Source: Deltaproteobacteria bacterium (lineage in GTDB: Bacteria > Desulfobacterota > Desulfobulbia > Desulfobulbales > JAJRZW01). Taken from it: a DNA stretch of 64,000 nt. A program made the translations under genes and the position numbers. The stretch is taken from NCBI GenBank assembly GCA_024275015.1, contig JAJRZW010000032.1, forward strand, positions 30,755-94,754, given 5' to 3'. The notes under the pieces were generated by a model. That model worked only from the letters and a program-made list of their open reading frames with translations, did no database searches and had not been told where the DNA came from. Every line of letters begins with the position of its first letter. The stretch's first letter is position 1. This document shows positions 17,594 through 34,296 of this stretch, one piece after another.

Positions 17594-17595
17594 CT

Positions 17596-21054: not shown

Positions 21055-21070
21055 TGGCACAATATTTGCT
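21055..21070 (+). promoter_or_regulatory. sigma-54 (-24/-12) promoter
   Basis: TGGCAC aatat TTGCT is an exact match to TGGCAC-N5-TTGCW, about 70 nt upstream of the ATG at 21141. Confidence 0.8.
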
Positions 21071-21140: not shown

Positions 21141-21647
21141 ATGGGACCCAAAATTGCTTTATTGCTGAGCGGTTTCAGCTCCGACCTGTCGGCCGTCGTC
21201 TGCGCGGTGCAACTGGCCGATCGGACGGGGAGACGGTTCTACACTTTGCAGGCGCAGGATCCCGGCGGCGTCCCCACGCCGAGCCGTGGAGAAACTACGG
21301 CGGGAGGCCGACTGCTTGACGGATTTCGCTTCGTGGCCGAGTTCGCCGGAGTCGAAGGAGTTCAGGTTACCTGCCATCTGCTGGGGGCCGGGTCGGTGGA
21401 ACAAGTGGCCGAGTTTCTCCTGGCCAATTCCATCACCTGTCTGGTTGTTGGCGACTGGTCCGAAGGATTCCGGAAGAACCAGGAAGATTGGCTCAATGAA
21501 TTGCGGCGGAGCCTGCGTGAGGCACCGCAACGTTTTTACCCGGACCTGCTGGTGATTAAAGCGCCGATCCTGGCGGAAGCCGATTTGAAGCGAATCGTAA
21601 GCCAGTCCCGCCGTTTGAAAAAACTGGTAGTTAGTAAAAAAAATTAG
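21141..21647 (+). CDS. USP-like / hypothetical protein
   Basis: 168 aa. Alternating beta-alpha pattern (KIALLLSG...CLVVGDWSEG...LLVIKAP) reminiscent of the universal-stress/adenine-nucleotide alpha-hydrolase fold. I did not see a clear ATP motif. Confidence 0.4.
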   Translation: MGPKIALLLSGFSSDLSAVVCAVQLADRTGRRFYTLQAQDPGGVPTPSRGETTAGGRLLDGFRFVAEFAGVEGVQVTCHLLGAGSVEQVAEFLLANSITCLVVGDWSEGFRKNQEDWLNELRRSLREAPQRFYPDLLVIKAPILAEADLKRIVSQSRRLKKLVVSKKN

Positions 21648-21728: not shown

Positions 21729-22658
21729 ATGTACATGTACTTGCCAATCGCCCTGACCAGCGCCAATTATCTGGTGGTCGTGGGCTTGGGACTCTTAGTC
21801 GGCCTGCTGTCCGGCCTCTTCGGGGTAGGCGGCGGTTTTCTCATGACGCCGCTGTTGATGATGATCGGCATCCCACCGACCATTGCCGCGGCCACCGACG
21901 CCAACCAGATCGTCGCCGCTTCGGCTTCCGGGACTTACGCCCATTGGCGCCTGGGAAATGTTGACTACAAAATGGGCATTTACCTGCTGATCGGCGGATT
22001 CGTCGGCGGCGCCTTCGGCGTCCAGATCATCAAGGCACTGCGCGCCACCGGCGGCGCCGATTTTCTGATCAAAATAACCTATGTGGTGATGTTAGGCGCA
22101 GTCGGCGCCTTCATGTTTTTTGAAAGCTTAAACGCCATGCGCAAGAGCAAGAATAAACCTGTCGCCGAGACCGGGGAAGTCGCCCAAGTCGAAAAAAGAA
22201 CAGGGTTTTTCGCCTCCCTGCCCATGCAGACTTATTTTGAAAAATCCGGCGTCACCCATTCGGCCCTGGTCCCCGTGGCCCTTGGTGTCTTTGTCGGCGT
22301 CCTGGCCGCCATCATGGGCGTCGGCGGCGGTTTCCTGATGGTGCCGGTGATGATCTACATGCTGCGCATGCCCATGCACGTGGTCGTCGGCACCAGCCTC
22401 TTTCAGATCATGTTTACCTGTATCGAGGTTACCTTCCTGCAGTCATACTCCAACCACACGGTGGATTTCCTCCTCGCTATTCTGCTTCTGGTCGGCTCCG
22501 TCTTCGGGGCCCAGATCGGCACCATCATAGGCAAGAAGCTACATGGCGATCAACTCAAGATCCTGCTGGCCATCATCGTGTTGGGCGTTACTGTAAAAAT
22601 CGTGCTGGAACTGGTAATGGAGCCCTCCATACTGCTGGCCATGAAGGGAGGACATTGA
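21729..22658 (+). CDS. TauE/SafE (DUF81) family anion exporter
   Basis: 309 aa with an internal duplication, each half containing the GVGGGFLMxP motif (GLFGVGGGFLMTPLL and IMGVGGGFLMVPVM). Confidence 0.8.
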   Translation: MYMYLPIALTSANYLVVVGLGLLVGLLSGLFGVGGGFLMTPLLMMIGIPPTIAAATDANQIVAASASGTYAHWRLGNVDYKMGIYLLIGGFVGGAFGVQIIKALRATGGADFLIKITYVVMLGAVGAFMFFESLNAMRKSKNKPVAETGEVAQVEKRTGFFASLPMQTYFEKSGVTHSALVPVALGVFVGVLAAIMGVGGGFLMVPVMIYMLRMPMHVVVGTSLFQIMFTCIEVTFLQSYSNHTVDFLLAILLLVGSVFGAQIGTIIGKKLHGDQLKILLAIIVLGVTVKIVLELVMEPSILLAMKGGH

Positions 22659-22661
22659 TCA

Positions 22662-23447
22662 ATGCGTAACAAAAATACAGCGCGGCTTACCGCCATATTA
22701 CTGTTGTTATGCCTGTCCCTGACGGCGTCACCTGCCATATCCGCCATCACCTGCCAGGTGAGTCCGAAACAGATCGACATCAATCTCACCTACCATGGCG
22801 CCACCCTCACCGTTACCGGCGAAAGCGCGCCCGGTGACGACCTGGTTATCCGCATCGGCAACAAGGCGGCCCCCGCCCATTACAAATATATTGGCAAGGC
22901 CGGCGGAATATTCTGGATGAAGAAGGGAAATATAACCTTCAAAAACGTACCCGGGGTTTATATTCTCGCCAGCTCCGGAAAACTGGAAAGCATCCTTGAC
23001 CCCGAGGCGATGAAGGCCAACCTGCTCGGCTACGCGGCCATTAAGGCCACGGCCGAAATAGAAGAGGGCAACCCCGGGCTGAGCAAAAACGAGGCTCGCT
23101 GGAAGAATGAGTTCATCCGTTTCAAGGAAAAACAGAACCTCTACACCATCCACCCCGGCACCGTGACCATACAACCGGGGCAGACTAACACCTACCGGGT
23201 GGAGGTACCCTGGCCGTTCCAGGCCCCTCCCGGCACCTACAGCATCGAGGCCATGGCGATCAGGAACGGCAAGGTGGCCGAACGAGCCCGGACCGATTTC
23301 ACCGTCGCCCGGACCGGAATGGTGGCCAAGCTCACTGACCTGGCCTTCAACAAGCCGGCACTCTATGGTATCATGGCCGTGGTCATCGCCATCATCGCCG
23401 GTTTCGCCGTGGGAATGATCTTCAAGAAGGGAGGAGGCGCCCACTAA
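22662..23447 (+). CDS. TIGR02186/Alph_Pro_TM-like protein (signal peptide plus C-terminal TM anchor)
   Basis: Signal peptide, a beta-rich periplasmic part and a C-terminal TM helix (LYGIMAVVIAIIAGFAVGMIF). To my knowledge this family is typically encoded next to DUF81 permeases. Confidence 0.55.
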   Translation: MRNKNTARLTAILLLLCLSLTASPAISAITCQVSPKQIDINLTYHGATLTVTGESAPGDDLVIRIGNKAAPAHYKYIGKAGGIFWMKKGNITFKNVPGVYILASSGKLESILDPEAMKANLLGYAAIKATAEIEEGNPGLSKNEARWKNEFIRFKEKQNLYTIHPGTVTIQPGQTNTYRVEVPWPFQAPPGTYSIEAMAIRNGKVAERARTDFTVARTGMVAKLTDLAFNKPALYGIMAVVIAIIAGFAVGMIFKKGGGAH

Positions 23448-23480
23448 AGACAGGTCGATCTACATTCATAAGACATACAA

Positions 23481-23510
23481 ATACCCGGCAGCCGACAGAC
23501 TGCCGGGTAT
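23481..23510 (+). terminator. perfect 11-bp hairpin (terminator- or processing-like) abutting the next start codon
   Basis: ATACCCGGCAG-ccgacaga-CTGCCGGGTAT, followed only by TTG. There is no real U-tract, so this may be an attenuator or stabiliser rather than a canonical terminator. Confidence 0.4.
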
Positions 23511-26105
23511 TTGTCGAGGTCCGCCGTCAACGTGCATCCTTTATTGTTGAAAATAGCTCGATTCTTCGGCCGGGCGGATCATAATTCAGGCGTTGACCCG
23601 CGTCTGATCCTCGAACGTTTTCGCCTGGTCCTCCGCAGCAATAACCGGGCCATGGAAATTATCGCCGACCTGGGAGAAAAACTCAGCGGTAACTACATTT
23701 TCGACAGCCAGTACATACACGACAATATCAAAGACCTGATCAACACCCTGCACGACTCAGTTGAAGCCCTCAACAATCTCGATGCCCGGCACCGGGAACT
23801 CTATCCGGTCCTAACCCGCCTGACCGAGCATATTCATGCCGTCATGCGGCACAAAGACGATCGACAGGGACCAAGAATCCTGCCTCTGGAAGAAATTTCT
23901 CCCCTGCATTGGGGCATCGTCGGCGGCAAAAACGCCCATCTCGCCGAGATAATTCATCACCTCAAACTCGACATTCCCCCCGGTTTTGCCATCACTACCC
24001 GCACTTACCACGAATTGATCGACCATAACGGCCTGCGTCCCCTGGTGGATCGTTATGAATCCCTGTGGGCCGAAACGGACAACACCGACGAACTTGAAAA
24101 TTTACGTTATCGCCTGGCTTCCGCGTTGACCACCACTGAATCGCCGCCAGGTTTGATGACCGAACTTGAGGAGCATTTGACGGACCTGATCTCCGTAACG
24201 GATGGTCCCTGCGCCCTGGCGGTAAGAAGCAGCGCCCCGGAAGAAGACCTCGATTTCTCTTTTGCCGGCCAGTTTCTCTCCCGGCTGAACGTGCCCCCGG
24301 AGCCGGCAGCGGTGTTTGCCGCCTACCGGGATGTGGCCGCCAGCATCTTCAGTCGCAGGGCCATCGACTACCGGCGCTGGTTGTTCCCCGAAGACGGACA
24401 CATGTCGATCGGGGTCGGCTGTCAACTGATGATCGATTCCCGGGTCAGCGGCGTGGCCTACACCACCGACCCCGGGAACCCCGGAGACGAGACAATGATC
24501 ATTGTCGGGACCTGGGGCCAGGGGGCCGGAATCGTCGAAGGAGAATTCCCCGGCGATACTTTTATGCTCAGTAAAGATAACCCACCGACGATCGACACCT
24601 GTCAGATTTCCCGCAAGGACAGCGCCCTGTACCTTGCCGACGACGACGGGCTCGAGGAACGAAACCTGACCCCGGAATTGCGGCAGACACCGTGCCTGAA
24701 CGAGGCCCAACTGGTGGAACTCGGACAGAGGGTGTTGCAGCTGGAAAATTACTTCAAACGGCCCCAGGATATCGAATGGACCTTTGACCGGAGGGGACGT
24801 CTCTTTATTCTCCAGTCCCGGCCTCTGCTGGTGCCGGTGACCCGGGAACTGCGCCGGGACCTGGCCGAGTCCATCAAACAGTATGAAGTGCTGGTTTCTG
24901 ATCTGGGGCAGGTGGCGCAGCAGGGAATCGGGGCCGGGCCGGTCCATGTGGTGCGGCAGGACACGGACCTGGATGATTTCCCGGATGGCGCCATTCTGGT
25001 GGGTCGCCGTGACTCATCGCACTTCGCCCGGGTCATGCACCGGGCCGCCGCCATTGTCACTGAAATAGGAACCCCGGTCAGCCACATGGCCACCCTCTGC
25101 CGGGAAATGAAGGTACCATCCCTGGTCAATGTCCCGGGTATCCTCGACCTGGTCGAAAACGGCCGGGATATCACCGTCGATGCCGAAGACCGCCGCATTT
25201 TCCGGGGGCGGGTAAAGGAGCTCATGGCCTACCAGCTTTCCACCAGCGTCAATCTGGAAGTCACCCGGGAGTTCCGCTTACTGCGCCAACTGCTCAACAG
25301 CATCACCCGCCTGCACCTGGTCGACCCACTTATGGATCAGTTCACCCCGGACAGATGCCGGACCTACCACGACCTCCTGCGCTATATTCATGAAAGCGCG
25401 GTGATGACTCTGGTCAACATGGGCAAGGACGAACGCAGTCTGTTGCGTAATAATACCGCCCGCCACCTGGATCTACCGATTCCGGCCGGAATTCTGGTCA
25501 TTGATATCGGCGGCGGCGTAGCCCCGAAAACCCCAGCCGACCGGGTCCCCTTCGCCGCCCTGACCTCCATTCCCTTCCGGGCCATCCTTAACGGCATGCT
25601 CTACCCGGGGATCTGGCACCGGGCCACAATGCCGGTGGGTTTTCACGACCTGATGAGCAGCATGCTCTCAGTGCCTACCGACGCCCTGGAAGGCCAGTAC
25701 ACCGGCCATAACATCGCCGTTATCAGCCATAACTATGTCAATCTCTGCTTCCGTTTCGGCTACCATTTCAATATCATCGACGCCCGCTGCGACGAACGCG
25801 AACGCGACAACCACATATATTTCCGCTTCCTCGGAGGGGCCACCGACCTGAGCAAACGCAGACGACGGGTCCGGCTGATCGCCGAGATCCTCACCGCTTT
25901 CGACTTCAACGTCCGCACCAGGGGCGATCTGGTCATCGCCCGGGCCGGCAATATGCCCCGGAGCGAAATGGAACGGATCCTTGATATCCTGGGAAGGCTG
26001 GTCGGTTTCACCCGGCAGCTTGACGTCCGCCTGGACAGTGAGACAGCGGTTGATTACTATATAGAGGCGTTCCTGTCAGGGAATTACGATGTGGTCTCAA
26101 GCTGA
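23511..26105 (+). CDS. PpsA/PPDK-like dikinase paralogue 1 (ATP-grasp + phospho-His swivel + unknown C-terminal domain)
   Basis: GGKNAHLAEI, LAVRSSAPEEDLDFSFAGQF and PQDIEWTFDRRGRLFILQSRPL form a PPDK_N-type ATP-grasp. TEIGTPVSHMATLCREMKVPSLV is the PEP-utilizer mobile His domain. The last ~300 aa show no TIM-barrel motifs I recognise. The TTG start is supported by an equal-length N-terminus in paralogue 2; an alternative GTG lies at 23532. Confidence 0.8.
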   Translation: MSRSAVNVHPLLLKIARFFGRADHNSGVDPRLILERFRLVLRSNNRAMEIIADLGEKLSGNYIFDSQYIHDNIKDLINTLHDSVEALNNLDARHRELYPVLTRLTEHIHAVMRHKDDRQGPRILPLEEISPLHWGIVGGKNAHLAEIIHHLKLDIPPGFAITTRTYHELIDHNGLRPLVDRYESLWAETDNTDELENLRYRLASALTTTESPPGLMTELEEHLTDLISVTDGPCALAVRSSAPEEDLDFSFAGQFLSRLNVPPEPAAVFAAYRDVAASIFSRRAIDYRRWLFPEDGHMSIGVGCQLMIDSRVSGVAYTTDPGNPGDETMIIVGTWGQGAGIVEGEFPGDTFMLSKDNPPTIDTCQISRKDSALYLADDDGLEERNLTPELRQTPCLNEAQLVELGQRVLQLENYFKRPQDIEWTFDRRGRLFILQSRPLLVPVTRELRRDLAESIKQYEVLVSDLGQVAQQGIGAGPVHVVRQDTDLDDFPDGAILVGRRDSSHFARVMHRAAAIVTEIGTPVSHMATLCREMKVPSLVNVPGILDLVENGRDITVDAEDRRIFRGRVKELMAYQLSTSVNLEVTREFRLLRQLLNSITRLHLVDPLMDQFTPDRCRTYHDLLRYIHESAVMTLVNMGKDERSLLRNNTARHLDLPIPAGILVIDIGGGVAPKTPADRVPFAALTSIPFRAILNGMLYPGIWHRATMPVGFHDLMSSMLSVPTDALEGQYTGHNIAVISHNYVNLCFRFGYHFNIIDARCDERERDNHIYFRFLGGATDLSKRRRRVRLIAEILTAFDFNVRTRGDLVIARAGNMPRSEMERILDILGRLVGFTRQLDVRLDSETAVDYYIEAFLSGNYDVVSS

Positions 26106-26165
26106 CAACAGGGTATCTTGAAAAATTATGATTTTCGTCCGAGGCCGACAAGGTAATGATAGATC

Positions 26166-26211
26166 CGCAACAAGTCCCCGCGGAGGCGTCTTCGGCGATT
26201 TTCGGAAAAAG
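26166..26211. repeat. intergenic repeat family R5, copy b (inverted)
   Basis: cgcaacaagtccccgcggaggcgtcttcggcgattttcggaaaaag is the reverse complement of 3029-3076. Confidence 0.7.
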
Positions 26212-26213
26212 CA

Positions 26214-26630
26214 ATGACGGCACTTGATGACACCGTTGCCGGGACATACCGGCTGTTGATAATAGACGACGAAGCCATTGTCGGTATACGGCTCGCCCAT
26301 ACTTTCACCAAGATGGGCTACAAGGTGACAACCCATACCGATCCGGCCCAGGCCCTGGCGGAAGTGGAACGGCAACCATTTGACGTGGTAGTCACTGATC
26401 TTAAAATGGAAGGAATCGACGGGATGGAGATACTGCGGCGGGTCAAAAAAATCAATCCGTCCACCCGGGTAATCATGATCACCGGCTACGCCGGGAATGA
26501 TACCGCCGATACCGCCTTCCGTGAAGGGGCCTTCGATTTCATCACCAAGCCCTTCAGCCTCGACGAGATAAAAAACGCCATCCTGCGATCATTTGCTGCT
26601 CCGGCCCAGGAAAGGGGTGAAAAAAAGTAA
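26214..26630 (+). CDS. single-domain CheY-like response regulator (RR1)
   Basis: LLIIDDE...FDVVVTDLKMEGIDG...VIMITGY...FITKPF contains all canonical receiver residues. Confidence 0.9.
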   Translation: MTALDDTVAGTYRLLIIDDEAIVGIRLAHTFTKMGYKVTTHTDPAQALAEVERQPFDVVVTDLKMEGIDGMEILRRVKKINPSTRVIMITGYAGNDTADTAFREGAFDFITKPFSLDEIKNAILRSFAAPAQERGEKK

Positions 26631-26785
26631 CTGCTCACAGGGTACCGAATCTTTCCTCGATCAACCTGACTTACATATGACTGATACGCTGCGTCAGGCT
26701 GATCAAGAAAATCTCCGGCACCCTGCAAGAAGTTACAGGTCCCGTGGTTATCGACATTTTGGCGATCATGGGATGAGTCGTTACT

Positions 26786-26852
26786 CACAGGATTCCGGAT
26801 CAAGTCCGGAATGACAAAAATAATAATTTGCGACTTTTTACGACGCCATCAC
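26786..26852. repeat. intergenic repeat family R3, copy a
   Basis: cacaggATTCCGGAtcaagTCCGGAATgacaaaaataataatttgcgactttttacgacgccatcac is similar to 38347-38413. The short box ttcttacgacgccatca also occurs at 11993-12011 and 17060-17078. Confidence 0.7.
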
Positions 26853-26985
26853 TTTATAACATCTCGAAATGTAAAGGCGCAGTGACGCTCTGCGGTGCGT
26901 AATTACATACCCCGATAATACTCCTGTATATGGGGGGCTTAAGTACGTGCAGCAGGGCGTTCATGGAGCGCTTACAAAAAAGCCA

Positions 26986-27014
26986 TTGACGAAGAGGAGA
27001 CAGAGGCGTAGAAA
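26986..27014 (+). promoter_or_regulatory. candidate sigma-70 promoter for the DUF202 gene pair
   Basis: TTGACG (26986-26991), a 17 nt spacer, then TAGAAA (27009-27014), about 40 nt upstream of the GTG at 27054. Confidence 0.3.
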
Positions 27015-27053
27015 TAGCACTTTATTTTTTGGCTGGAGAGGCTTGAGAGTAAG

Positions 27054-28577
27054 GTGCGATTGAGAGGTCCGGAAAAAATAGCGGCGTTGGAGGAATTATC
27101 CAGACGCCACGGCTGCGGCTGGGTCGAATACAGGGAAGAGATCAATCAACCCCTGACGGTTCTGAACAAACTCGACCTTGAGCGGTTAAAAACCGACCTC
27201 TGGTTCCCCCACACCGTTGAAGACAACCGGGCCACGATAGTCGCCTGCAACCCCAGCCCGGCTCTGGCCGGAATGATAAAGTCAATCCTGGGCGTGGAAA
27301 GCGTCGAATTTCTGGTCACCCTGCCCCACGACCTTGTCCGGATCATCGAACACAATCAGGACGTCAACCACGGATTCCCCGCATCCTCCGGACGCACCCC
27401 CCTGGCCCTGGTCCGTACCCATCTGGCCGGCCGCCGTTCGCTGTTTGCCTATTACCGTACCCTGCTGGCCAAAAGCCGTACCGGTCTCGCCTTCATCCGC
27501 ACCGGTATTTCCTGCGTCACCATCGCCCTGTTCTTCATCCGCGTTTTCGGCCACCGATGGTTACTGCTTCTGGAAGGTCCGCTGCTGGCAGTGGGCTGTG
27601 TAATGGTATTCGACGGAATCAAGTGGTATCTGCCGGTCCGGCGCTTCAAGGCCCGGATCCCTAATTGCGTTGATACCGGGGGCACCGGGGGCACCACCGT
27701 GCTGACCGTCGCCGACGAGGAGGATTTTCCCGTTTTTTCCCGTACCGGAGAAATCGCCACCGCCGCCGAACTACGCCGGGCCTGGACCGACCTCTCACCG
27801 GTAATGCGCCGCCGTTTTCTCGCAAGCGACCGGACCGATTACGCCGAGGAGCGGACGCTGCTGGCCTGCCTGCGCTCCCGCATGGCAAAAGTCCGCACCG
27901 GCCTGGCATTTTCCCGCACCGGTATTTCCCTGGCCAGCCTGGGATTCGCCATGATCCGCAAGTTCCCCCCCAGCCTCTGGATGATCCTGGACCTGACCCT
28001 GATCGGCATCGGAGCAGTCATGGTCGTCGAGGGATTCCTCTGGTATGCCGGAAGTCGCCATGCCGGGGTCAAAGGCAATGCCTCGGTAAAACAAAACCTC
28101 AAGGCCGCCACCATCTGGGATCACTTCTTTCCCCACCGCCACTCTCCGCCCGCCCCCAATATTATCTCGCGGACCCTGCCAGTACACAGCAGCGACCTGC
28201 CCGGCATCTGGGCCACCACCGGCGTGGCCCTGGAACGCACCGTACTGGCCGAACGCCGCAATGTCATGTCCCGACTGCGTACAGTCATGGCCCGGGCCCG
28301 TACCGGCTTTGCCTTTATCCGCACCGGATTTTCCCTGGCCCTGATCGGCATCGCCTTTATCCTCTATTTCGGTGGGGGGGTGACCGGCTGGAACATCTTT
28401 GACTTACTGATGGTCGGAGGCGGGATGGCTCTGATCATCGACGGACTTTACTGGAGCCTGCCGGCCGAGCGCACCCGCCGCCAGTTCCCCTATTGCTACG
28501 GAGATATGGAGATAACCATTCCCGACTACGGCATCCCGGCCCGATCCTGGCGCACGGCGGTATTCAGCAATGAATAG
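27054..28577 (+). CDS. T2SSE_N (GspE/MshE N-terminal-like) domain fused to three DUF202 membrane repeats
   Basis: The N-terminal ~100 aa (LDLERLKTDLWFPHTVEDNRATIVACNPSPALAGMIKSILGVESVEFLVTLPHDLVRIIE) resemble the T2SSE_N fold. They are followed by three units of an amphipathic R/T-rich helix plus two TM helices: YRTLLAKSRTGLAFIRTGIS..., LRSRMAKVRTGLAFSRTGIS..., LRTVMARARTGFAFIRTGFS... Confidence 0.7.
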   Translation: MRLRGPEKIAALEELSRRHGCGWVEYREEINQPLTVLNKLDLERLKTDLWFPHTVEDNRATIVACNPSPALAGMIKSILGVESVEFLVTLPHDLVRIIEHNQDVNHGFPASSGRTPLALVRTHLAGRRSLFAYYRTLLAKSRTGLAFIRTGISCVTIALFFIRVFGHRWLLLLEGPLLAVGCVMVFDGIKWYLPVRRFKARIPNCVDTGGTGGTTVLTVADEEDFPVFSRTGEIATAAELRRAWTDLSPVMRRRFLASDRTDYAEERTLLACLRSRMAKVRTGLAFSRTGISLASLGFAMIRKFPPSLWMILDLTLIGIGAVMVVEGFLWYAGSRHAGVKGNASVKQNLKAATIWDHFFPHRHSPPAPNIISRTLPVHSSDLPGIWATTGVALERTVLAERRNVMSRLRTVMARARTGFAFIRTGFSLALIGIAFILYFGGGVTGWNIFDLLMVGGGMALIIDGLYWSLPAERTRRQFPYCYGDMEITIPDYGIPARSWRTAVFSNE

Positions 28578-29790
28578 TCCTGACTCCCAGGCCCCGGCGT
28601 TCGCCTCCCTGGCCCGGACCGGGCGGATCACCACGGAGTGTCTGGCCGCCGCCGCCTCTGCCGCAGTGTCCAGAGATGTGCCGTTGGCCCACATTCTCCA
28701 CAACGAATACGGAATCAGCCGGCAGACCCTCTTGCAGGCTCTAAGCAGCCATTACCACTGCCCGGCCGTCGAGTACGACGAACGCCTGCCCATCCCTCCG
28801 GAAATCCTGCACCACATGCCGGGGAAAAAAATGGTGGACGAAGGGTGGTTTCCGATACTGAAAAACATTAACGGCGATATGGTGATAGCCGCCATCGATC
28901 CCGCTGACCCCGGTCTCGGCAAGGCAGTGACCAAGGTTATGGGCCCGGGAAACCATGAGTTTCGCGTTACCCTGCCCGACGACATCGTCTGGTTTGCCCA
29001 GGACTTCCTCCACGCCCCGCCCGGCGAACTGATCGGTACCGAGCGTACCGGCCTGGCCTACTGGCGCAACACCATGGCCCAGTGGCGCACCCGTATGGCC
29101 TGCTACCGCACCGACCTGGCCAAGGCCAGAACCGCGCTGTCCACGGGACGGGCCGGTCTGGCCTTGACGACCATAGCCGAGACCCTGTGGCGCAGCGGCA
29201 GACTCCAGACCGAACAGTGGCTGCCGCTTGCGGTGTTAAACCTGGGGATGGTGCTGCTTATCATCGCCGCCCCCATCTACCTGAAAATCCGCCGTTCGCG
29301 CATGACGCCACCCGGTCCCCAGACCCTGGTGGAAGTAACCGCCGCGACCTTGATGTTCCTGGAAAATTTTCATTTCCCGATACCATCCGATCATGCCGCC
29401 AAGCCGCGCAAGGATACCATGCTGGCCCGGCTGGGCGATTTCCTCGCCGACTACTCAACCATCATCTATCCGGTCCCCGCAAGTCGCGAACGCACATATC
29501 TGGCCCGGGAACGCAATGTCCTGGCGGCGCAACGCACCATCGCCGCCTGCTATCGGACCATTTATTCACGAGCACGCACCGGACTCGCATTTATCCGCAC
29601 CGGGGTATCTTTCATCAGCATCGGCCTCGGCCTCCTCGGCTACTTCGGGCTGGGAAGCAACACCCCCTTTGACCTGATTCTGGTCCTGACCGGCACGGTG
29701 CTGATCGGCGACGGCCTGCTCTGGTACCTGCCGGTGCGGAAAGAGCAGGCCGAACTTCCACGAAGCCGCAGCGCCGCGCTGGCCGAATAA
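28570..29790 (+). CDS. T2SSE_N-like domain fused to two DUF202 membrane repeats
   Basis: The start overlaps the upstream stop (ATGAATAG). The N-terminal region is PLAHILHNEYGISRQTLLQALSSHYHCPAVEYDERLPIPPEILHHMPGKKMVDEGWFPILKNINGDMVIAAIDPADP. Two DUF202 units follow: ERTGLAYWRNTMAQWRTRMACYRTDLAKARTAL... and ERNVLAAQRTIAACYRTIYSRARTGLAFIRTGVS... Confidence 0.7.
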   Translation: MNSPDSQAPAFASLARTGRITTECLAAAASAAVSRDVPLAHILHNEYGISRQTLLQALSSHYHCPAVEYDERLPIPPEILHHMPGKKMVDEGWFPILKNINGDMVIAAIDPADPGLGKAVTKVMGPGNHEFRVTLPDDIVWFAQDFLHAPPGELIGTERTGLAYWRNTMAQWRTRMACYRTDLAKARTALSTGRAGLALTTIAETLWRSGRLQTEQWLPLAVLNLGMVLLIIAAPIYLKIRRSRMTPPGPQTLVEVTAATLMFLENFHFPIPSDHAAKPRKDTMLARLGDFLADYSTIIYPVPASRERTYLARERNVLAAQRTIAACYRTIYSRARTGLAFIRTGVSFISIGLGLLGYFGLGSNTPFDLILVLTGTVLIGDGLLWYLPVRKEQAELPRSRSAALAE

Positions 29791-29881
29791 AAAAATAAAA
29801 GCATAATAACGCCGGGCTTGCTAATCTCCATCATAACACGAGGGGAAACAGCATTCGCCTCCAGACGGCCCGGGAGACCAC

Positions 29882-31300
29882 ATGAAAATAGAGCATAAAA
29901 TCTATCTTTCCAACGCGGTGCATATCGTGCTGCTGCTGCTGATCGGTATCTTCGCCCTGCACAACCTGAACCAGCTCTATACCAAATTCCGTTTCACCGC
30001 CATCGCCGACGGACTGAACACCGGCTTCCTGGAAATGCGTCTGGCTGAAAAAAACTATTTTCTCTACCGGGACCAGACAGCACTGGAAGCGATCACCACC
30101 AGGATCAACAAAACCACCACCACCATGCAAAAACTCAAGAGCGACATCATCCGGGCGGTTGGTCCCGCCAGCTATGCCGGTCTGGAACAACGGCTCAAAA
30201 ACTACAGGAGAATGGTCGCCGCCATTCACCAGGGCGAACGTAACAGTCCCGGAATCCGCAAACAGCTGCGAAAGGCGGGACAGGATCTCAAGATTTTCTC
30301 CGAAAACATAACCGTCCTCGAACGTAAAAACGTCGCCAAGATTATCAACCATTCCAAGACAATACTGCTCTACTCCTTCTGGGCCGTGGTCCTGTTCGCT
30401 CTTTTCTTCAGCCAGCATACCGTCCGCAGCATCGGCGGAGCCCTGCGCCAAATCGTCGCCCTGACCCGGGCCATCTCCCGGGGGAACTACAAATCAATCG
30501 ACCAGAAGCCCTCGGCCGACGAAATGGGCGCGGTGATCACGGCCATCAACACCATGGCCAATGAACTCAAACAGCGGGAACAGGAGATCATCCAATCAAA
30601 AAGACTCGCCTCCATCGGCGTTCTGGTGGCCGGGGTGGCCCACGAGCTTAACAACCCCCTGAACAACATCTCAATGATCGCCCAGACCTACGAGGATGTT
30701 TATGACCGCCTCGGTCGCGAAGAGCGGATAAGTTTCATGAACCAGATCGAAGAAGAGACCGAACGGCTGCGCCTGATCATCAAAAACCTCCTCGACTTTT
30801 CCCGCCCCAAGGAACCTCGTCTGGCCCAATCCGAACCCAACCACGTCATCCATAAGACCCTGGATCTGGTCTGCAACATGTTAGAAGTCTCCAACATCCG
30901 CACCAAACTGGATCTGGCCGATGTGCTTCCTGACTTTTACATCGACGAACACCAGATACTGCAAGTGCTGGTCAACATCACCACCAACGCCATCCAGGCC
31001 ATGAGCAGCGGCGGCGAGTTGACCATTCGCAGCCGTTATCTTGAAAAACAGGACGAAGTGGAATTCGAAATCCGCGACAATGGCAACGGCATCCCCCCGG
31101 AGTTTCTGGAGCATATCTTTGATCCGTTCTTCACCACCAAGGAAGAAGGCGGCACCGGCCTGGGGCTCTGGATCAGTTATGGTATAGTTAAACAGCATTT
31201 TGGTAATATCCACGTCGAAAGCTCGGTCGACGGCGGTACCGCATTTTTTATTACTTTCCCGAGCTGCAACAAGGTGAAAAGGTGTAACAATGAAGAATAA
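29882..31300 (+). CDS. sensor histidine kinase (2 TM, extracytoplasmic sensor, HAMP, HisKA, HATPase_c)
   Basis: H-box [14 protein letters not shown]-box [14 protein letters not shown]-boxes RDNGNGIP and [14 protein letters not shown]. Confidence 0.9.
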
Positions 31301-31661
31301 TATCATGATCATCGATGACGAAAAAATAGTGGGTGATATGGCGAAGCTGTCCCTGGAACAGGAGGGTTACGAGGTCGAAACCTTTCTCGACGGGGAGAGC
31401 GCCCTGAACCGCATGGAGAAAAAATCATTCGACGTGGTGATCACTGATCTCAAGATGAAAGGTATCGACGGCCTTGAGGTTCTGCGCAACGTCAAACACC
31501 TCTACCCCGATACCGTGGTGATCATGATCACCGCCTTCGCCAATCTGGACGTGGCCATCGAGGCCATGCGTGACGATGTTCAGGACTTCTTCCCCAAGCC
31601 GGTCAAGATCAAGGAACTCAAGGCCTCAATCAAAAAGGCCCTGGAGAAGAAGGCGGGCTGA
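31290..31661 (+). CDS. single-domain CheY-like response regulator (RR2)
   Basis: IMIIDDE...FDVVITDLKMKGIDG...VIMITAF...FFPKPV. It is a paralogue of RR1 and overlaps the HK stop by 11 nt. Confidence 0.9.
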   Translation: MKNNIMIIDDEKIVGDMAKLSLEQEGYEVETFLDGESALNRMEKKSFDVVITDLKMKGIDGLEVLRNVKHLYPDTVVIMITAFANLDVAIEAMRDDVQDFFPKPVKIKELKASIKKALEKKAG

Positions 31662-31677
31662 GGCCCGGGGGCCCCTG

Positions 31678-34296
31678 ATGGCACGGAAAGCCCCGTTCCG
31701 CCGCGCCTGGCGCGACCGGCTACGCCACGCCCTGGGCCGTGCCCCGGCTGGGGCACAACACGATCCGGCCGCGCTCTTCACCCGCTTCCAGGCGGTCCTG
31801 GCCGGCAACAACCGGGCGCTTGAGGCAATCACCGATCTCGGTGAAAAGCTGGGCGGCGATTATCTTTTCGATGTCAACTACACCAAAGCCGCTTACGGCG
31901 AACTCTTTGCCGCCATTTCCGACGCCCTGGAAAATTTCACCATTCTCACCAACCACGCCCACCCGGGCCTGGCGGAAATACTCGCCCGCCTCGACCGCCA
32001 GGTTCAGCGGATTCTGACCGAAGAAGTCCCGGAATCGGATCCGCTTCTGATCTTCTACCCGGAAATCACCTGGGACCTGGCCGAGACCGTAGGCGGCAAA
32101 AACTATCATCTGGCCCTGTTAGGCAATGAGCTGCGGCTGCGGACCCCGCCGGCCTTCGCGGTCACCACCCGCGCCTTTGATCTCTTCCTCGCCCATAATC
32201 AACTGAGCGAACGTTTACAGGCCCTGGCCGACAGCCGGAACCAAAAAACCGACCTGGCCGGCCTGCGGGAGGCGATTATGGCCGGGGCTATGCCGCCTGA
32301 ACTTGAGACGGAACTGGCCCGGGCCGCCCGTCGGCTGGCCGGGCGCCGGGGAGCGAAATATCTGCTGGCGGTTCGCAGCAGCGGCGAAGAGGAAGACGGA
32401 GATTTTTCCTTTGCCGGCCAGTTCGAATCAATACTCAACGTCCCGGCCACCGCCGCGGCCATAGGCGCGGCCTGGAAACAGGTGGTGGCGAGTCTCTTCA
32501 GCCCCGGAGCCGCCTCCTACCAGCTACAACTTGGTTACGATCCGGGGCGGTTGAAAATGGCGGTGGCCTGCGTGGCAATGGTCAAGGCCCGGGTCAGCGG
32601 GGTTATATATACCGTGGCCGGTTCCGGACAGGACGATGTCGTCCTTATTAACGCGGCCTGGGGCCTGGGTCCGGCGGTGGTTGACGGAATCACCGACGCT
32701 GATCTCTATCTGGTGAAAAAGGACGGGGTGGCGATAATCAGCGAGACCCGGATCGGCCGCAAGGAATTGATGGTGGTTGGAGATGGCGCAGCCGGAATCA
32801 GGACCGTACCCACCCCGACGGCCGACCGGGGCCGTCCCTGCCTCGTGGACAAACAGGTTCTGGAACTGACCCGCCTGGCCATGAAGATTGAAAAACATTT
32901 TCGTTCCCCCCAGGACATCGAATGGGCCATCGACGACCGGGGGAAAATCTTTATCCTCCAGAGCCGGGCCCTGAAGGTTGACGAGGGTGAAAAGCCACCC
33001 GACCCGGAGAACGAGGGGGCAAACGACCCGGACCTGCCGGTCCTGATGGACAACCAGGGGGTGGTGGTCCGCCACGGAATAACCGCCGGCAGAATCTTTC
33101 ATGTCCGCAGCCCCGAAGACCTGGAACAGGTACCGCGCGGGGCGGTTCTGGTGGCCCGGCACGATTCGCCCCAATATGTCCGGGTGATCCCCTTTGTCAA
33201 CGCCATCATCACCGATACCGGAGTGGCCACCAGCCACATGGCCTCAATCTGCCGGGAATTCGCCATTCCCACCGTGGTCAACACCGGCAACGCCACCAGG
33301 CTTCTCCCGGCCGGCCGGGAAGTCACCCTGCGGGCCGACAGTGACGGTACGATCACCGTCTATGCCGGCGTGGCCCGGGAATTGCTGCGCGAAGAGCGAC
33401 GAAGCAGCGTCAAGCTGCGCCATCTCTACGAGTTCCGCCGCCAGAAATATCTGATGCGCTACATCACCCCGCTTCATCTGGTCAACCCACTGGAAGAGGA
33501 GTTCACTCCTGCCAAATGCCGCTCGGTCCACGACCTGATCCGCTTCATGCACGAAATGGCGGTGCAGGCCCTGGTGGCCGATGCCAACCGGCAGGCCGGA
33601 AGCCTCGCCCGTCGCCTGTTCGGCCGGGCAAACACGCTCCGGGACCTGGCCCTGCCCCTGCCGATCCGTATGCTGCTGATCGATATCGGCGGGGCCCTGG
33701 TTCCCGACAGCGGCCGCAAAGTGACCCCGGAGCAATTACGCTCCCGTCCCCTGCGGGCGATCCTGCGGGGAATGCTTGAACCCGGAAGCTGGAGTAACGA
33801 AACAATGCCGCTGACCGGAAGGAATTTCCTCGCCGGCATGACCCGGACCGCCGACCCCGGCGCCATCTCCGCCGGCGCCAACCTGGCAGTGGCCTCGGCC
33901 GACTACGTCAACCTGAGCCTGCGTTTCGGCTATCACTTCGACGTCCTTGACTCCTACTGCACCGACCAACCCCGCAACAATCACATCTTCTTCCGTTTCG
34001 TCGGCGGCGCCGCCGCCCTCACCAGCCGGTCGCTGCGCATTCACTTCATGGCCAGGGTCATGAGCGCCTACGGCTTTATGACCAGAACCAGGGGTGATCT
34101 TCTCGTGGCAAGGATCTCCAACCTTCCGGCCGCGGAGGTGGAACAACTGCTGACCAACCTCGGCCGCCTGATCGGTTGCGCCCGGCAGATGGACGCCGCC
34201 CTGGTTTCTGAAGCGGAGGCGGAACGATTGGCGGATGAGTTTCTCGCAGGCAAAACCGCCGGAGATTTCCTTTTTGACAAACACGGTAATAGATAA
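31678..34296 (+). CDS. PpsA/PPDK-like dikinase paralogue 2
   Basis: The ATG at 31678 (MARKAPFRR...) lies 16 nt after the RR2 stop. GGKNYHLALL, LAVRSSGEEEDGDFSFAGQF, PQDIEWAIDDRGKIFILQSRAL and the swivel His TDTGVATSHMASICREFAIPTVV are present. The C-terminal region is collinear with paralogue 1 (LRFGYHFDVLD, NHIFFRFVGGAA, TRTRGDLLVAR). The track start at 31570 lies inside RR2. Confidence 0.8.
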   Translation: MARKAPFRRAWRDRLRHALGRAPAGAQHDPAALFTRFQAVLAGNNRALEAITDLGEKLGGDYLFDVNYTKAAYGELFAAISDALENFTILTNHAHPGLAEILARLDRQVQRILTEEVPESDPLLIFYPEITWDLAETVGGKNYHLALLGNELRLRTPPAFAVTTRAFDLFLAHNQLSERLQALADSRNQKTDLAGLREAIMAGAMPPELETELARAARRLAGRRGAKYLLAVRSSGEEEDGDFSFAGQFESILNVPATAAAIGAAWKQVVASLFSPGAASYQLQLGYDPGRLKMAVACVAMVKARVSGVIYTVAGSGQDDVVLINAAWGLGPAVVDGITDADLYLVKKDGVAIISETRIGRKELMVVGDGAAGIRTVPTPTADRGRPCLVDKQVLELTRLAMKIEKHFRSPQDIEWAIDDRGKIFILQSRALKVDEGEKPPDPENEGANDPDLPVLMDNQGVVVRHGITAGRIFHVRSPEDLEQVPRGAVLVARHDSPQYVRVIPFVNAIITDTGVATSHMASICREFAIPTVVNTGNATRLLPAGREVTLRADSDGTITVYAGVARELLREERRSSVKLRHLYEFRRQKYLMRYITPLHLVNPLEEEFTPAKCRSVHDLIRFMHEMAVQALVADANRQAGSLARRLFGRANTLRDLALPLPIRMLLIDIGGALVPDSGRKVTPEQLRSRPLRAILRGMLEPGSWSNETMPLTGRNFLAGMTRTADPGAISAGANLAVASADYVNLSLRFGYHFDVLDSYCTDQPRNNHIFFRFVGGAAALTSRSLRIHFMARVMSAYGFMTRTRGDLLVARISNLPAAEVEQLLTNLGRLIGCARQMDAALVSEAEAERLADEFLAGKTAGDFLFDKHGNR

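Follow-up and report, generated by a model that had tools for sequence, protein, structure and literature searches.

The closest published system to the locus described here, as matched by described domains and gene content, is the Desulfovibrio "nitrate cluster" (DVU0251-DVU0245 / Dde_0597-Dde_0605; Korte et al. 2014, PMC4001038), to which its authors assigned a proposed role in anion (thiosulfate) uptake. Transposon mutants in its TauE gene (DVU0251), response regulator (RR, DVU0247), and PPDK-like gene (DVU0246) were all nitrate-resistant, whereas a mutant in the phosphatase (DVU0245) was still nitrate-sensitive, with a fitness score of -6.04 in nitrate (PMC4001038). By the published description, this cluster has in common with ours a permease of the TauE family, a histidine kinase (HK) with a HAMP domain, a CheY-like receiver consisting of a single domain, and a protein containing PPDK_N and PEP-utilizers mobile domains without a TIM barrel (Dik in our cluster); both also have the sub-order HK-RR-Dik after TauE, and the genes of both are poorly annotated. 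The Desulfovibrio cluster differs in having a PtxB-like periplasmic protein and a PTP-like phosphatase, both missing from ours, a second gene (DVU0250) without Alph_Pro_TM annotation, and one Dik-like protein of 744 aa instead of two Diks of ~865 aa; it has no genes for the membrane proteins MemA and MemB, and a sigma-54 activator is not mentioned. Thus, a sequence-only reading of our locus was only partly right in knowing of no characterised pathway, in that a cluster with the same parts and a nitrate-resistance phenotype had been published.

In the 64,000-nucleotide stretch analysed (hereafter designated the window), an ORF check located all seven plus-strand genes that had been proposed to form a mirror-image cluster (Table 1), and their domains, paralogy, and tight coupling were confirmed. 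Direct reading of the sequence reproduced the reported MemA/MemB overlap, ATGAATAG, by which MemB is translationally coupled to MemA, as well as the 11-nt overlap of HK with RR2 and the 16-nt gap between RR2 and Dik2. Dik1 and Dik2 are collinear (39% identity over 854 aa, 550 bits), each motif quoted earlier being seen in their alignment; RR1 and RR2 are 45% identical (E 8e-35), and MemA and MemB 31% identical (E 4e-34), so that the paralogy of all three pairs is far above the chance level. The start of Dik1 is ambiguous, as the TTG at 23511 lies inside a perfect hairpin and a GTG at 23532 provides an alternative; the hairpin may act in RNA processing, in attenuation, or in RNA stability.

The seven genes are, however, not the whole unit, which extends upstream to ~19386/21055; they constitute the downstream part, the 3' two-thirds, of a larger sigma-54-dependent operon that spans from a promoter at 21055 to the end of the last gene at 34296. 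Upstream of Dik1 lie, in order, a sigma-54 activator gene, a -24/-12 promoter, a Usp-like gene, a TauE permease gene, and an Alph_Pro_TM gene. The product of this first gene (Pfam Response_reg, Sigma54_activat with E 9e-70, and HTH_8) probably activates transcription of the operon, and 24 of 33 Desulfobulbia-like loci have an orthologue next to the cluster. The promoter sequence, TGGCACAATATTTGCT, is the sole zero-mismatch match to TGGCAC-N5-TTGCW within the 64-kb window, and among 29 related loci, 20 have a comparable site ~500-780 nt before TauE (expected, 0.07). The Usp-like protein of the window has no Pfam match of its own, and a Pfam Usp match was obtained for 7 of 16 aligned proteins (14 orthologues and two Nitrospirota Usp proteins); in Nitrospirota clusters, two clear Usp genes lie between Alph_Pro_TM and MemA, and another cluster (L086) has a Usp gene at the position equivalent to that in the window. 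The window TauE is 58% identical to that of a distant cluster of the fusion type (L088). The Alph_Pro_TM protein, laid out as a signal peptide, a periplasmic domain, and a C-terminal TM anchor, scores 94.9 bits against TIGR02186, under the model cut-off, and its gene follows TauE in every cluster examined.

Table 1 Features of the operon and its flank in the window.
Feature	Coordinates	Strand	Description
Sigma-54-dependent response regulator	19386..20774	+	Receiver, AAA+ sigma-54 activator, Fis-type HTH
Sigma-54 -24/-12 promoter	21055..21070	+	Zero-mismatch match
Usp-like protein	21141..21647	+	168 aa, small, divergent; first gene of the operon
TauE/SafE (TSUP family) anion permease	21729..22658	+	Pfam TauE E 1.6e-51; conserved core partner
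Alph_Pro_TM / TIGR02186 protein	22662..23447	+	Pfam PF09608 E 2e-51; conserved core partner
Perfect hairpin	23477..23514		17-bp stem between Alph_Pro_TM and Dik1; overlaps the annotated Dik1 TTG
Dik1	23511..26105	+	864 aa, TTG start
Dik1 C-domain	25233..26102	+	Defines the family; alignments A1 and A2, AF2 model
RR1	26214..26630	+	Single-domain CheY-like receiver, partner of Dik1; Pfam E 1.5e-29
RR1-MemA gap	26631..27053		423 nt, non-coding, AT-rich
MemA	27054..28577	+	T2SSE_N/GSPII-fold N-domain and three DUF202-type units
MemB	28570..29790	+	T2SSE_N-like domain and two DUF202-type units
HK	29882..31300	+	Sensor histidine kinase
RR2	31290..31661	+	Single-domain receiver
Dik2	31678..34296	+	872 aa; Dik1 paralogue with the same four-domain architecture

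Dik1 consists of a helical N-domain (aa 1-125), an ATP-grasp domain (136-440), a swivel-His domain (490-559), and a C-domain (~575-864). Pfam detected PPDK_N (E 2e-69 in Dik1 and 3e-76 in Dik2) and the PEP-utilizers mobile domain in both Diks, and gave no match for residues 1-130 and ~570 to the end; the swivel His is intact (H525 in Dik1 and H520 in Dik2). The Diks thus retain the complete nucleotide domain and swivel histidine of PEP synthase (PpsA) and PPDK in the same order, and formation of His~P from the beta-phosphate of ATP, with release of AMP and Pi, is likely a common partial reaction. Unlike PpsA and PPDK, they have an additional 125-aa helical N-domain, score under the family cut-offs, and are encoded in a signalling and transport operon; in place of the C-terminal PEP/pyruvate TIM barrel they have an unrelated, conserved domain of ~300 aa. 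To read the Diks as ordinary PEP synthases or PPDKs in a coincidental neighbourhood is therefore very improbable: the naming as "pyruvate, water dikinase" and the rank of PpsA models as the best NCBIfam matches favour this, but the models align over just 6-475 of their 798 positions, scoring 271-301 bits where the cut-off is 598, the same gene neighbourhood is kept in different phyla, and the missing barrel, which is the catalytic domain, refutes that identity. Some sources do label members of the Dik family in this way.

The C-domain, which the sequence-only reading could not assign, matched no family in Pfam (including a scan of 44 members at E<=10) or NCBIfam and no PDB entry by sequence profile or by Foldseek fold search. 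Its AF2 model (pLDDT 80.8, pTM 0.73) gave a best Foldseek PDB match of E 0.078 with TM <=0.25, and the secondary structure predicted for it combines an antiparallel beta-meander with helices and is not that of a TIM barrel. Alignments A1 and A2 revealed two Gly-rich loops and invariant polar residues rich in Arg, His, Asp, and Cys (in Dik1, E587, C616, H620, D621, R624, H627, D665, N734, Y742, Y751, H752, D757, N767, R772, R783, R786, D806, R835, Q836, and D838). Clustered at 50% identity, the family has no fewer than 1,482 clusters, which all share one fixed 860-aa architecture, and the C-domain is the family-defining domain, without known relatives.

The PpsA superfamily has repeatedly swapped its substrate domain, and the Diks might accordingly be small-molecule phosphotransferases of the kind of rifampin phosphotransferase, flavonoid phosphate synthetase, and phenylphosphate synthase, modifying an imported xenobiotic or metabolite, with the two-component system merely inducing the pathway. 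These recurrent swaps, the partial NCBIfam matches of the ATP-grasp region to Rph, PigC, and RedH, and a transporter gene in the same locus speak for this possibility. We nevertheless consider it unlikely, because those matches reach only 110-190 bits against cut-offs of 999-1700, and rifampin phosphotransferase, PigC, and RedH, while combining the same ATP-grasp and swivel-His core with a swapped acceptor domain, place that domain centrally and the swivel C-terminally, the swivel of Dik being central; their acceptor domains have no sequence or fold similarity to the Dik C-domain, and they have no receiver partners. Receivers fused to Dik argue for post-translational control beyond induction, and up to four paralogues per cluster with conserved membrane partners are atypical of a detoxifying enzyme.

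RR1 and RR2 are Response_reg proteins (Pfam) resembling NtrC/AtoC receivers (NCBIfam), with all key residues intact (D18/D19/D62/T90/K112 and D9/D10/D53/T81/K103, respectively), in agreement with the earlier claim of paralogous receivers with intact Asp. HK has a HAMP-HisKA-HATPase_c arrangement (Pfam), two TM segments, a periplasmic region of ~130 aa, and an intact H254, its best NCBIfam match being AtoS. An RR adjoins a Dik in all 33 Desulfobulbia-like loci and in 28 of 31 Nitrospirota loci, the order HK-RR2-Dik2 is kept in ~30 Nitrospirota loci, and every RR retains the full phospho-acceptor residue set. Furthermore, Dik::receiver fusions with the receiver at the Dik C-terminus occur in at least 14 protein clusters (90% identity) from other lineages. 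The recurrence of these fusions argues for direct Dik-RR coupling and backs the dikinase-receiver link suggested before. In L088, the gene preceding TauE encodes a protein that shares 32% identity with the window HK; in another cluster (L084), an HK lies directly upstream of a shorter protein composed of a partial C-domain and a receiver.

Dik might alternatively act as a non-canonical histidine kinase that passes phosphate from ATP through the swivel His to the Asp of a receiver beside it or fused to it, in parallel with or converging on the canonical HK, and with the C-domain serving as a docking platform. The C-terminal position of the fused receiver is the topology of hybrid histidine kinases and differs from that of receiver-regulated enzymes, and the near-universal adjacency of RR to Dik and the complete phospho-acceptor sets suit such a relay, for which the phosphotransferase system (PTS) provides a precedent, as the swivel His of Enzyme I donates phosphate to the protein HPr; the weak, non-significant Foldseek look-alikes of the C-domain, DR_1245 and ExsC, are small protein-binding alpha/beta folds. 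This relay is nonetheless doubtful, since the canonical HK is conserved in the clusters, translationally coupled to RR2 in the window, and kept even in L088, and since the C-domain, with its two Gly-rich loops and ~20 charged or polar residues that are invariant, resembles a catalytic or substrate site rather than a docking surface. In addition, DikX and DikY, further paralogues in relatives, have no receivers of their own, and we know of no PpsA-type enzyme that phosphorylates Asp.

The sequence-only reading of MemA and MemB as T2SSE_N-DUF202 membrane proteins was borne out by DUF202 matches above the Pfam cut-off (46.1 bits in three stretches for MemA) and MshEN/T2SSE_N matches just below it. 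MemA comprises a T2SSE_N/GSPII-fold domain (aa 1-101) and DUF202-type units at aa 113-200, 256-338, and 391-480, and MemB has units at aa 155-245 and 304-395. In the AF2 model of MemA (pLDDT 80.8), each unit consists of a single helix of 52-55 residues that continues into TM1, with TM2 after it, and the helix bears five invariant arginines at heptad spacing (R11/R18/R25/R32/R39). Foldseek matched the N-domain to XpsE-N, PilF-GSPII, and MshE-N (prob 1.0), and it superposes on the MshEN/T2SSE_N (GSPII) domains of MshE, PilF, XpsE, and PilB with an rmsd of ~3 A over ~97 residues; it differs from these in having no attached secretion ATPase and in its sub-cut-off Pfam scores. As the 24-residue c-di-GMP-binding motif is found in none of 77 orthologues, protein docking is the more likely role of this domain than c-di-GMP sensing.

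With three units in 38 of 41 MemA and two in 39 of 39 MemB orthologues, the pair provides exactly five DUF202 units. The yeast VTC complex (Vtc1/3/4) also has five DUF202 domains, Vtc1 belonging to the same Pfam family (E 1.7e-17), and forms a 3:1:1 pentamer whose five TM1 helices build a polyphosphate channel lined by the heptad-spaced basic residues K24 and R31 (PMC9911596). The cluster could thus be conceived as a bacterial VTC counterpart, in which the Diks build or extend a phosphorylated polyanion such as polyphosphate via phospho-His and the concatenated 3+2 units of MemA and MemB form a pseudo-pentameric, arginine-lined channel. An hhalign register placing K24 and R31 on unit residues R25 and R32 accords with this proposal, although the match is not significant (probability 2%). 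The units have two TM helices rather than three and a much longer arginine ladder, SPX and TTM (polymerase) domains are missing, and neither Foldseek of the MemA model against PDB nor profile searches with the DUF202-type units retrieved a VTC chain or detected structural similarity to VTC. The synthesis of polyphosphate by PPK1 through a phospho-His intermediate offers a chemical precedent; still, we regard a VTC-like function as quite unlikely, for the distant Dik clusters examined contain no MemA or MemB. Both are present in 29 of 31 Nitrospirota loci, and their lack in the distant clusters indicates that Dik function is independent of them and that they are accessory to the Dik cluster.

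The operon is conserved across several phyla of bacteria, and the gene association is strongly conserved outside the window genome, not specific to it. Relatives (for example, L083) carry the full collinear order Dik1-RR1-HK'-DikX-DikY-MemA-MemB-HK-RR2-Dik2, of which the window genome lacks the middle three genes; at their place is the RR1-MemA gap, in which tblastn found no remnant of HK', DikX, or DikY. The mirror-image order noted earlier is thus no design feature; it has no significance of its own and is the remainder of this longer cluster after a three-gene loss. Dik2 is orthologous to the single Dik of Nitrospirota clusters, and the Nitrospirota Diks score 650-840 bits against it. Of the 23 Desulfobulbia-like loci with enough upstream flank, 21 have both TauE and Alph_Pro_TM. 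Each of the Dik-containing clusters examined combines a sensor kinase, single-domain receivers adjoining or fused to Dik, and TauE followed by Alph_Pro_TM, and this core, HK-TauE-Alph_Pro_TM-Dik-RR, is retained down to ~35% identity in distant clusters.

From these results, we tentatively favour the reading that the operon is a two-component-gated phosphotransfer system controlling or powering membrane anion transport, as is supported by its domain content and intact catalytic residues, the conserved C-domain with invariant polar residues, the two-phylum synteny, the core of the distant clusters, the fusions, the sigma-54 promoter by the activator gene, and the Desulfovibrio genetics. Presumably, the adjacent activator would turn on the operon, and the membrane HK would sense a periplasmic signal and phosphorylate RR1 and RR2, each of which would dock on and gate its partner Dik. 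The Dik swivel His would accept the beta-phosphate of ATP, releasing AMP and Pi, and pass it to an acceptor held by the C-domain, and the phosphorylated product would activate or energise anion movement via TauE/Alph_Pro_TM and, in the window lineage, also via a putative arginine-lined MemA-MemB conduit. As the fold of the C-domain matched nothing, the transfer of phosphate from Dik to an acceptor is proposed by analogy to PpsA, PPDK, and rifampin phosphotransferase. Counting against the gated model, each of 107 Diks has the N-domain, with or without an adjacent RR, so that it gives no pointer to an RR-docking site, and the receiver-less DikX and DikY imply that one-to-one RR-Dik gating is not general; synteny, moreover, denotes functional linkage, not the direction of control. 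In Desulfovibrio, the like phenotypes of the TauE, RR, and Dik-like mutants and the opposite one of the phosphatase mutant would fit the gated model and point to an HK -> RR -> Dik -> transporter pathway that acts positively, possibly on a sulfur oxyanion or another oxyanion. Collectively, the Dik family represents uncharacterised PEP-synthase-like phosphotransfer enzymes coupled to two-component and anion-transport proteins.

The seven co-directional genes read earlier at 23511-34296 were recovered intact by ORF listing and translation, and each detail of their coupling could be read directly from the sequence, namely the MemA/MemB overlap ATGAATAG, the 11-nt overlap of the histidine kinase gene (HK) with RR2, and the 16-nt gap between RR2 and Dik2. 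The two PpsA-like dikinases, Dik1 and Dik2, are indeed collinear paralogues (39% identity over 854 residues), as are the single-domain receivers RR1 and RR2 (45% identical), and the membrane proteins MemA and MemB are 31% identical, with internal repeats in both. In the Pfam assignments, the kinase has the domains HAMP-HisKA-HATPase_c and both receivers are Response_reg proteins. HK and the receivers thus have the make-up of a two-component system, with the H-box His of HisKA and HATPase_c in the kinase and an intact acceptor Asp within the DD...D...T...K set in RR1 and RR2; by inspection, this set is also intact in 76 of 76 orthologous receivers. The sole uncertain point among the gene calls is the start of Dik1, as the TTG at 23511 sits within a hairpin and a GTG at 23532 is possible. 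No T-run follows this hairpin on the + strand, and it could be a candidate RNA processing or attenuation element.

The proposed limits of the seven-gene unit did not stand, however, because four more genes on the same strand lie upstream, beginning with that for a sigma-54 activator (EBP). The only perfect match to TGGCAC-N5-TTGCW in the 64-kb window (TGGCAC-N5-TTGCT) was found 70 nt 5' of the 168-aa ORF, and a comparable site occupies the equivalent position in 20 of 29 loci of relatives, versus 0.07 expected. With a predicted -24 GG/-12 GC promoter and a gene for its cognate enhancer-binding protein, these genes have the composition of a putative sigma-54-dependent operon. The 168-aa ORF product is, as judged by alignment, a divergent Usp protein; the Pfam Usp model matches 7 of 16 aligned sequences (14 orthologues of the ORF and two Nitrospirota Usp proteins), and in Nitrospirota clusters two clear Usp genes sit between Alph_Pro_TM and MemA. 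Separately, the 16-mer TGGCCCGGGAATTGCT, one mismatch off the sigma-54 consensus, occurs twice in the window, once inside Dik2 and once in front of a 280-aa ORF without a Pfam match, at a distance of 62 nt. Just 5' of the activator gene, a CBS-pair protein is encoded between two CitMHS-type anion permeases; this arrangement is not kept beside the clusters of relatives, where an HK and a 203-aa RR are found instead.

Coordinates of the cluster, its surroundings and the features cited from relatives' loci (L-numbers; P-numbers are their proteins)
Feature	Positions	Strand	Remark
c-di-AMP operon	3914-7060		canonical; CdaA (DAC domain), YbbR-domain regulator, phosphoglucosamine-mutase-like protein
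CitMHS/CBS/CitMHS genes	15307-18906
EBP	19386-20774	+	receiver/sigma-54-activator/HTH regulator; domain annotation
Predicted sigma-54 site	21055-21070
168-aa ORF, divergent Usp	21141-21647	+	orthologue alignment against Pfam Usp
TauE/SafE permease	21729-22658	+	domain annotation
Alph_Pro_TM protein	22662-23447	+	TIGR02186-like; signal peptide and C-terminal anchor
Hairpin	23477-23514		perfect 17-bp stem, 4-nt loop; between Alph_Pro_TM and Dik1, overlapping the annotated TTG start
Dik1	23511-26105	+	864 aa
RR1	26214-26630	+
MemA	27054-28577	+
MemB	28570-29790	+
HK	29882-31300	+
RR2	31290-31661	+
Dik2	31678-34296	+	872 aa
16-mer, first copy	33371-33386		inside Dik2
HydB/AsrA-like and HydG/AsrB-like subunits	34317-36202		electron-transfer subunits
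FdhA-like ORF	36199-38238	-	formate dehydrogenase alpha subunit; the span takes in the 133-aa ORF
133-aa ORF	37837-38238	-	directly upstream of the FdhA-like ORF
16-mer, second copy	44906-44921
280-aa ORF	44968-45810
Copper-homeostasis island	46286-51908
DUF2339 and DUF3999 proteins	56384-60576	-	927 aa (membrane) and 470 aa
P0413	L084 10001-10924		307 aa
P0235	L086 9001-11337
Metallophos gene after last Dik	L083 17137-17793
Metallophos gene after last Dik	L086 13865-14581
Metallophos gene after last Dik	L088 7876-8964

On the 3' side, the cluster is followed on the opposite strand by an unrelated formate-dehydrogenase-like gene set, in which the FdhA-like ORF matches the FdhA model from position 135 onward only and is preceded by a separate 133-aa ORF in the same direction; the gene looks like one split at an in-frame selenocysteine TGA. 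The genes for HydB/AsrA-like and HydG/AsrB-like subunits adjoin it. Elsewhere in the window are a copper-homeostasis island with a P-type ATPase carrying YHS and HMBD metal-binding domains, a multicopper oxidase and, on the opposite strand, a YHS-HD-domain (HD_5) protein; two adjoining genes for large uncharacterised proteins, DUF2339 and DUF3999; and a c-di-AMP operon.

Both Diks contain the ATP-grasp domain PF01326 (PPDK_N; E 2.4e-69 in Dik1 and 3.1e-76 in Dik2) and the swivel phospho-histidine domain PF00391 (PEP-utilizers, mobile; E 2e-15 and 4e-17), whose catalytic His, H525 in Dik1 and H520 in Dik2, lies within the SHMA motif and is kept in all four Dik paralogue classes. Pfam gave no match for residues 1-130 or from ~570 to the end, and the PEP/pyruvate TIM barrel (PF02896) is absent from both proteins. 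The ATP-grasp domain and the swivel His are shared with PEP synthase and PPDK, whereas the C-terminal TIM barrel is theirs alone, and the NCBIfam PpsA models align over positions 6-475 of 798 only, with 271-301 bits versus a cut-off of 598. Dik members are labelled 'pyruvate, water dikinase' in databases despite having no PEP-making domain, and it is barely credible that Dik is an ordinary PEP synthase. That another region replaces the barrel, as had been proposed, is borne out by the AlphaFold2 model of the last ~300 residues (C-domain; pLDDT 80.8, pTM 0.73), in which a helical part is followed by antiparallel beta-meanders and helices with no beta/alpha barrel, and for which the best Foldseek match in the PDB had an E of 0.078 and a TM of 0.25. 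Similarly, no known family could be assigned to this region from Pfam, NCBIfam or PDB sequences, at permissive thresholds and with 44 members.

Homologues of the last 290-300 residues are confined to the Dik family, which is large: when 1.84 billion representatives were searched with a profile of just the C-domain, at least 1,482 clusters (50% identity) were retrieved, 739 of them at E<=1e-30, and the full-length matches listed are ~780-990 aa each, with the C-domain starting at ~505-645. Members occur in Thermodesulfobacteriota, Nitrospirota, Methylomirabilota, Gemmatimonadota, Zixibacteria, Eiseniibacteriota and others; a taxonomic tie to sulfur metabolism only is weakened by those in Methylomirabilis, Gemmatimonadota, Eiseniibacteriota and Zixibacteria. 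The C-domain has ~20 invariant polar residues, including a C-x3-H-x6-H face (C616, H620 and H627, all on one helix), D665 in a VIDIGGG loop, Y751-H752, R772 in an FRFxGG loop, R783, R786, D806, and R835-Q836-x-D838. From this pattern, the C-domain may hold a catalytic or substrate-binding site, with a ligand that is anionic or carries phosphate. Rifampin phosphotransferase and PigC-RedH have the order ATP-grasp, acceptor domain and C-terminal swivel, in contrast to the central swivel of Dik, and their models gave 109-190 bits on the Diks versus cut-offs of 999-1700; the reading of Dik as a small-molecule phosphotransferase is, in our estimate, distinctly unlikely. As a separate observation, three Dik paralogues of relatives (P0235 in L086, P0221 and P0232) still have an N-domain, a C-domain and the swivel His, with an ATP-grasp region that looks divergent, and P0235 and P0221 have no PPDK_N match in the precomputed Pfam listing; such paralogues may be partner or pseudo-enzyme subunits.

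The suggestion of the sequence-only reading that the dikinases exchange phosphoryl groups with the receivers or are gated by them gained support from gene adjacency and, above all, from gene fusion. An RR gene adjoins a Dik gene, in either order, in all Desulfobulbia-like loci and in almost all of those from Nitrospirota. Moreover, in P0172 (987 aa), P0173 and P0181, a complete receiver directly follows the C-domain, with a TDLKM acceptor motif identical to that of RR1 and RR2, and a search seeded with such a fusion found at least 10 further fused clusters, some attributed to Candidatus Methylomirabilis and Gemmatimonadota. In locus L088, the fusion takes the exact place of Dik and the first RR in the order HK - TauE - Alph_Pro_TM - Dik - RR - RR. 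Because such fusion proteins exist, which we regard as decisive evidence, Dik and receiver are directly coupled. By analogy with hybrid kinases, which the fused receiver resembles in its C-terminal place, this arrangement favours His-to-Asp transfer, with Dik as a new ATP-grasp-based kinase that would phosphorylate receiver domains. However, a canonical HK is retained, both in the window, where it is translationally coupled to RR2, and beside the fused form in L088, which favours gating from HK through RR to Dik; that Dik is a receiver kinase is doubtful. The helical N-domain (125 aa; motif NNRA...DxGxKLGGxYxFD) was rejected as a docking site for RR, since an iterative search found it in 107 of 107 full-length Diks of the loci, whether or not an RR is adjacent. 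In L084, P0413 retains no more of Dik than the final part of the C-domain, to which a receiver is fused, and its gene directly follows and overlaps one for a HAMP histidine kinase; the C-terminal alpha/beta sub-domain may work with a receiver on its own.

Conservation of the gene association outside this genome was confirmed in a scan of one genome per species, in which at least 533 stretches encode the Dik C-domain; ORFs were called in the best 80 of these and scored against the window proteins. These 80 loci are Desulfobulbia-like or belong to Nitrospirota (Thermodesulfovibrionales and Dissulfurispiraceae), the closest relatives being uncultured Desulfobulbia-like MAGs, and the association extends beyond them. 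The Nitrospirota order is TauE - Alph_Pro_TM - Usp - Usp - MemA - MemB - HK - RR - Dik, with both MemA and MemB in 29, and RR adjoining Dik in 28, of the 31 loci having enough flank. The Desulfobulbia-like order is EBP - Usp-like - TauE - Alph_Pro_TM - Dik1 - RR1 - HK' - DikX - DikY, the last three being genes that the window lacks; in L083, where the cluster is readable in full, DikY is followed by MemA - MemB - HK - RR2 - Dik2. By this comparison, the window cluster is an L083-type cluster minus HK'-DikX-DikY, and the mirrored dikinase/receiver order, which had been thought a feature of the system, is incidental rather than a design principle: it arises because RR1 follows Dik1 and RR2 precedes Dik2 in the ancestral, longer collinear cluster. 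The 423-nt gap between RR1 and MemA was rejected as a decayed HK'-DikX-DikY, as tblastn found no remnant there. More distant members (~35% identity) have the shorter cluster HK - TauE - Alph_Pro_TM - Dik - RR - RR without MemA/MemB, and a further variant is Usp - TauE - Alph_Pro_TM - Dik - RR - Dik' - Dik. From the orders across near and distant clusters, the conserved core therefore consists of HK, TauE, Alph_Pro_TM, Dik and RR, to which particular lineages have added MemA/MemB, Usp and further Dik paralogues. No homologues were found on plasmids. A gene for a calcineurin-like phosphoesterase (Metallophos) recurs just 3' of the last Dik gene, at whatever point the cluster stops and mostly on the opposite strand (L083, L086, L088, and also L007, L008, L011, L015, L022 and L032), and one for a Cytidylate_kin2+BON protein recurs in short clusters (L081, L085 and L088); neither adjoins the window cluster.

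MemA and MemB had been described as T2SSE_N-DUF202 proteins. The DUF202 part holds in Pfam (PF02656; 46.1 bits for MemA and 27.6 for MemB versus a cut-off of 23.4), the same model giving 64.1 bits with yeast Vtc1. The T2SSE_N part stands as a fold, with Foldseek matches of the N-terminal domain to XpsE-N, PilF-GSPII and MshE-N (prob 1.0, rmsd ~3 A, target-normalised TM ~0.5), but not as a Pfam assignment, the MshEN/T2SSE_N scores of 19.4 and 20.4 bits being just under the cut-off of 23.1. MshEN-type c-di-GMP sensing was rejected, because its 24-residue motif, RLGxx(L/V/I)(L/V/I)xxG(L/V/I)(L/V/I)xxxxLxxxLxxQ, is present in 0 of 39 MemB and 0 of 38 MemA orthologues; a docking role for the domain is more plausible. 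There are three DUF202-type units per MemA in 38 of 41 orthologues and two per MemB in 39 of 39, and in each unit the DUF202 signature runs on N-terminally as a heptad ladder, (A-x-x-R-T-x-x)n, with invariant R11, R18, R25, R32 and R39 and interleaved alanines. In the MemA model, this ladder forms a single helix of 52-55 residues that runs on as TM1, and a second TM helix comes next.

In the yeast VTC channel, DUF202 domains make up a 3:1:1 pentamer, its pore being formed by five TM1 helices and lined for polyphosphate by K24 and R31 (PMC9911596). MemA and MemB together resemble it in having five units with basic TM1 helices. On one reading, these units would assemble 3+2 into a pseudo-pentameric DUF202 pore in which 25 arginines are stacked, and bacteria would have their own counterpart of the VTC polyphosphate channel of eukaryotes; the Diks would be phospho-histidine polymerases or phosphotransferases of a new class, directly controlled by CheY-like receivers, and would feed the phosphorylated polyanion they make into the pore. 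The hhalign register, a match that is not significant (probability 2%), pairs K24 and R31 of VTC with R25 and R32 of the units. No VTC chain was retrieved by Foldseek against the PDB or by a PDB profile search of the units, so that direct similarity was detected by none of the three methods, and VTC has a TTM polymerase and SPX domains, neither of which is in the cluster. Because the alignment is non-significant and these searches retrieved no VTC, the 'arginine-lined polyanion conduit' is a hypothesis on the working of the pair rather than a family membership. We consider the joint reading of MemA/MemB and Dik decidedly improbable.

Full-text literature searches for the domain combinations, TIGR02186, Alph_Pro_TM and Desulfovibrio locus tags yielded only the study of Korte et al. 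2014, in which a poorly annotated cluster of D. vulgaris and D. alaskensis confers nitrate sensitivity (PMC4001038). It encodes a TauE-like permease, a hypothetical protein, a PtxB-like protein, a HAMP kinase, a CheY-like receiver, a 744-aa PPDK_N/mobile-domain protein and a PTP-like phosphatase; cells became nitrate-resistant when the gene for the permease, the receiver or the dikinase-like protein was hit by a transposon, and a phosphatase mutant was still nitrate-sensitive, with a negative fitness score in nitrate. Leaky anion (thiosulfate) transport was proposed by the authors (PMC4001038). As compared by annotation, this cluster shares with the window the TauE permease, HK, single-domain RR and a PPDK_N/mobile-domain protein without TIM barrel, as well as the HK-RR-Dik order, and is therefore the closest known system. 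It differs in having the PtxB-like protein and the PTP-like phosphatase, neither domain of which is found in 19386-34296 of the window, whereas the window has MemA and MemB, which the Desulfovibrio cluster lacks, and Alph_Pro_TM, which is not annotated there. A positive pathway, in which receiver and dikinase act on the permease and dephosphorylation opposes them, would fit these genetics; the Metallophos phosphoesterase of relatives may have the opposing role. The best explanation, which we put forward tentatively at somewhat less than even odds, is a two-component-gated His-swivel phosphotransferase that drives or controls anion transport: the operon would be induced through sigma-54, the two-component proteins would gate Dik, and the Dik product would control or power transport by TauE/Alph_Pro_TM and, in the window lineage, also by MemA/MemB.

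Collectively, the cluster is real, conserved and largely undescribed, with the Desulfovibrio nitrate cluster as a partial precedent, and is built from known kinds of proteins, namely the PpsA superfamily, two-component systems and DUF202 membrane proteins. Dik stands for an enzyme family that is both unstudied and large, with at least 1,482 clusters (50% identity) and at least 533 stretches in species-representative genomes, and its ties to receivers by adjacency and fusion suggest a new two-component output, that is, a His-swivel phosphotransferase, or a new receiver phosphodonor. Through the 3+2 DUF202 arginine-ladder pair, the bacterial DUF202/YidH proteins become accessible to study, as does a possible link to VTC-type polyanion channels. 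The one phenotype known for a likely Dik relative, that sulfate reducers become nitrate-resistant, bears on the control of oil-field souring and has been without a mechanism since 2014; for it, the core of HK, TauE, Alph_Pro_TM, Dik and RR provides a concrete set of components.
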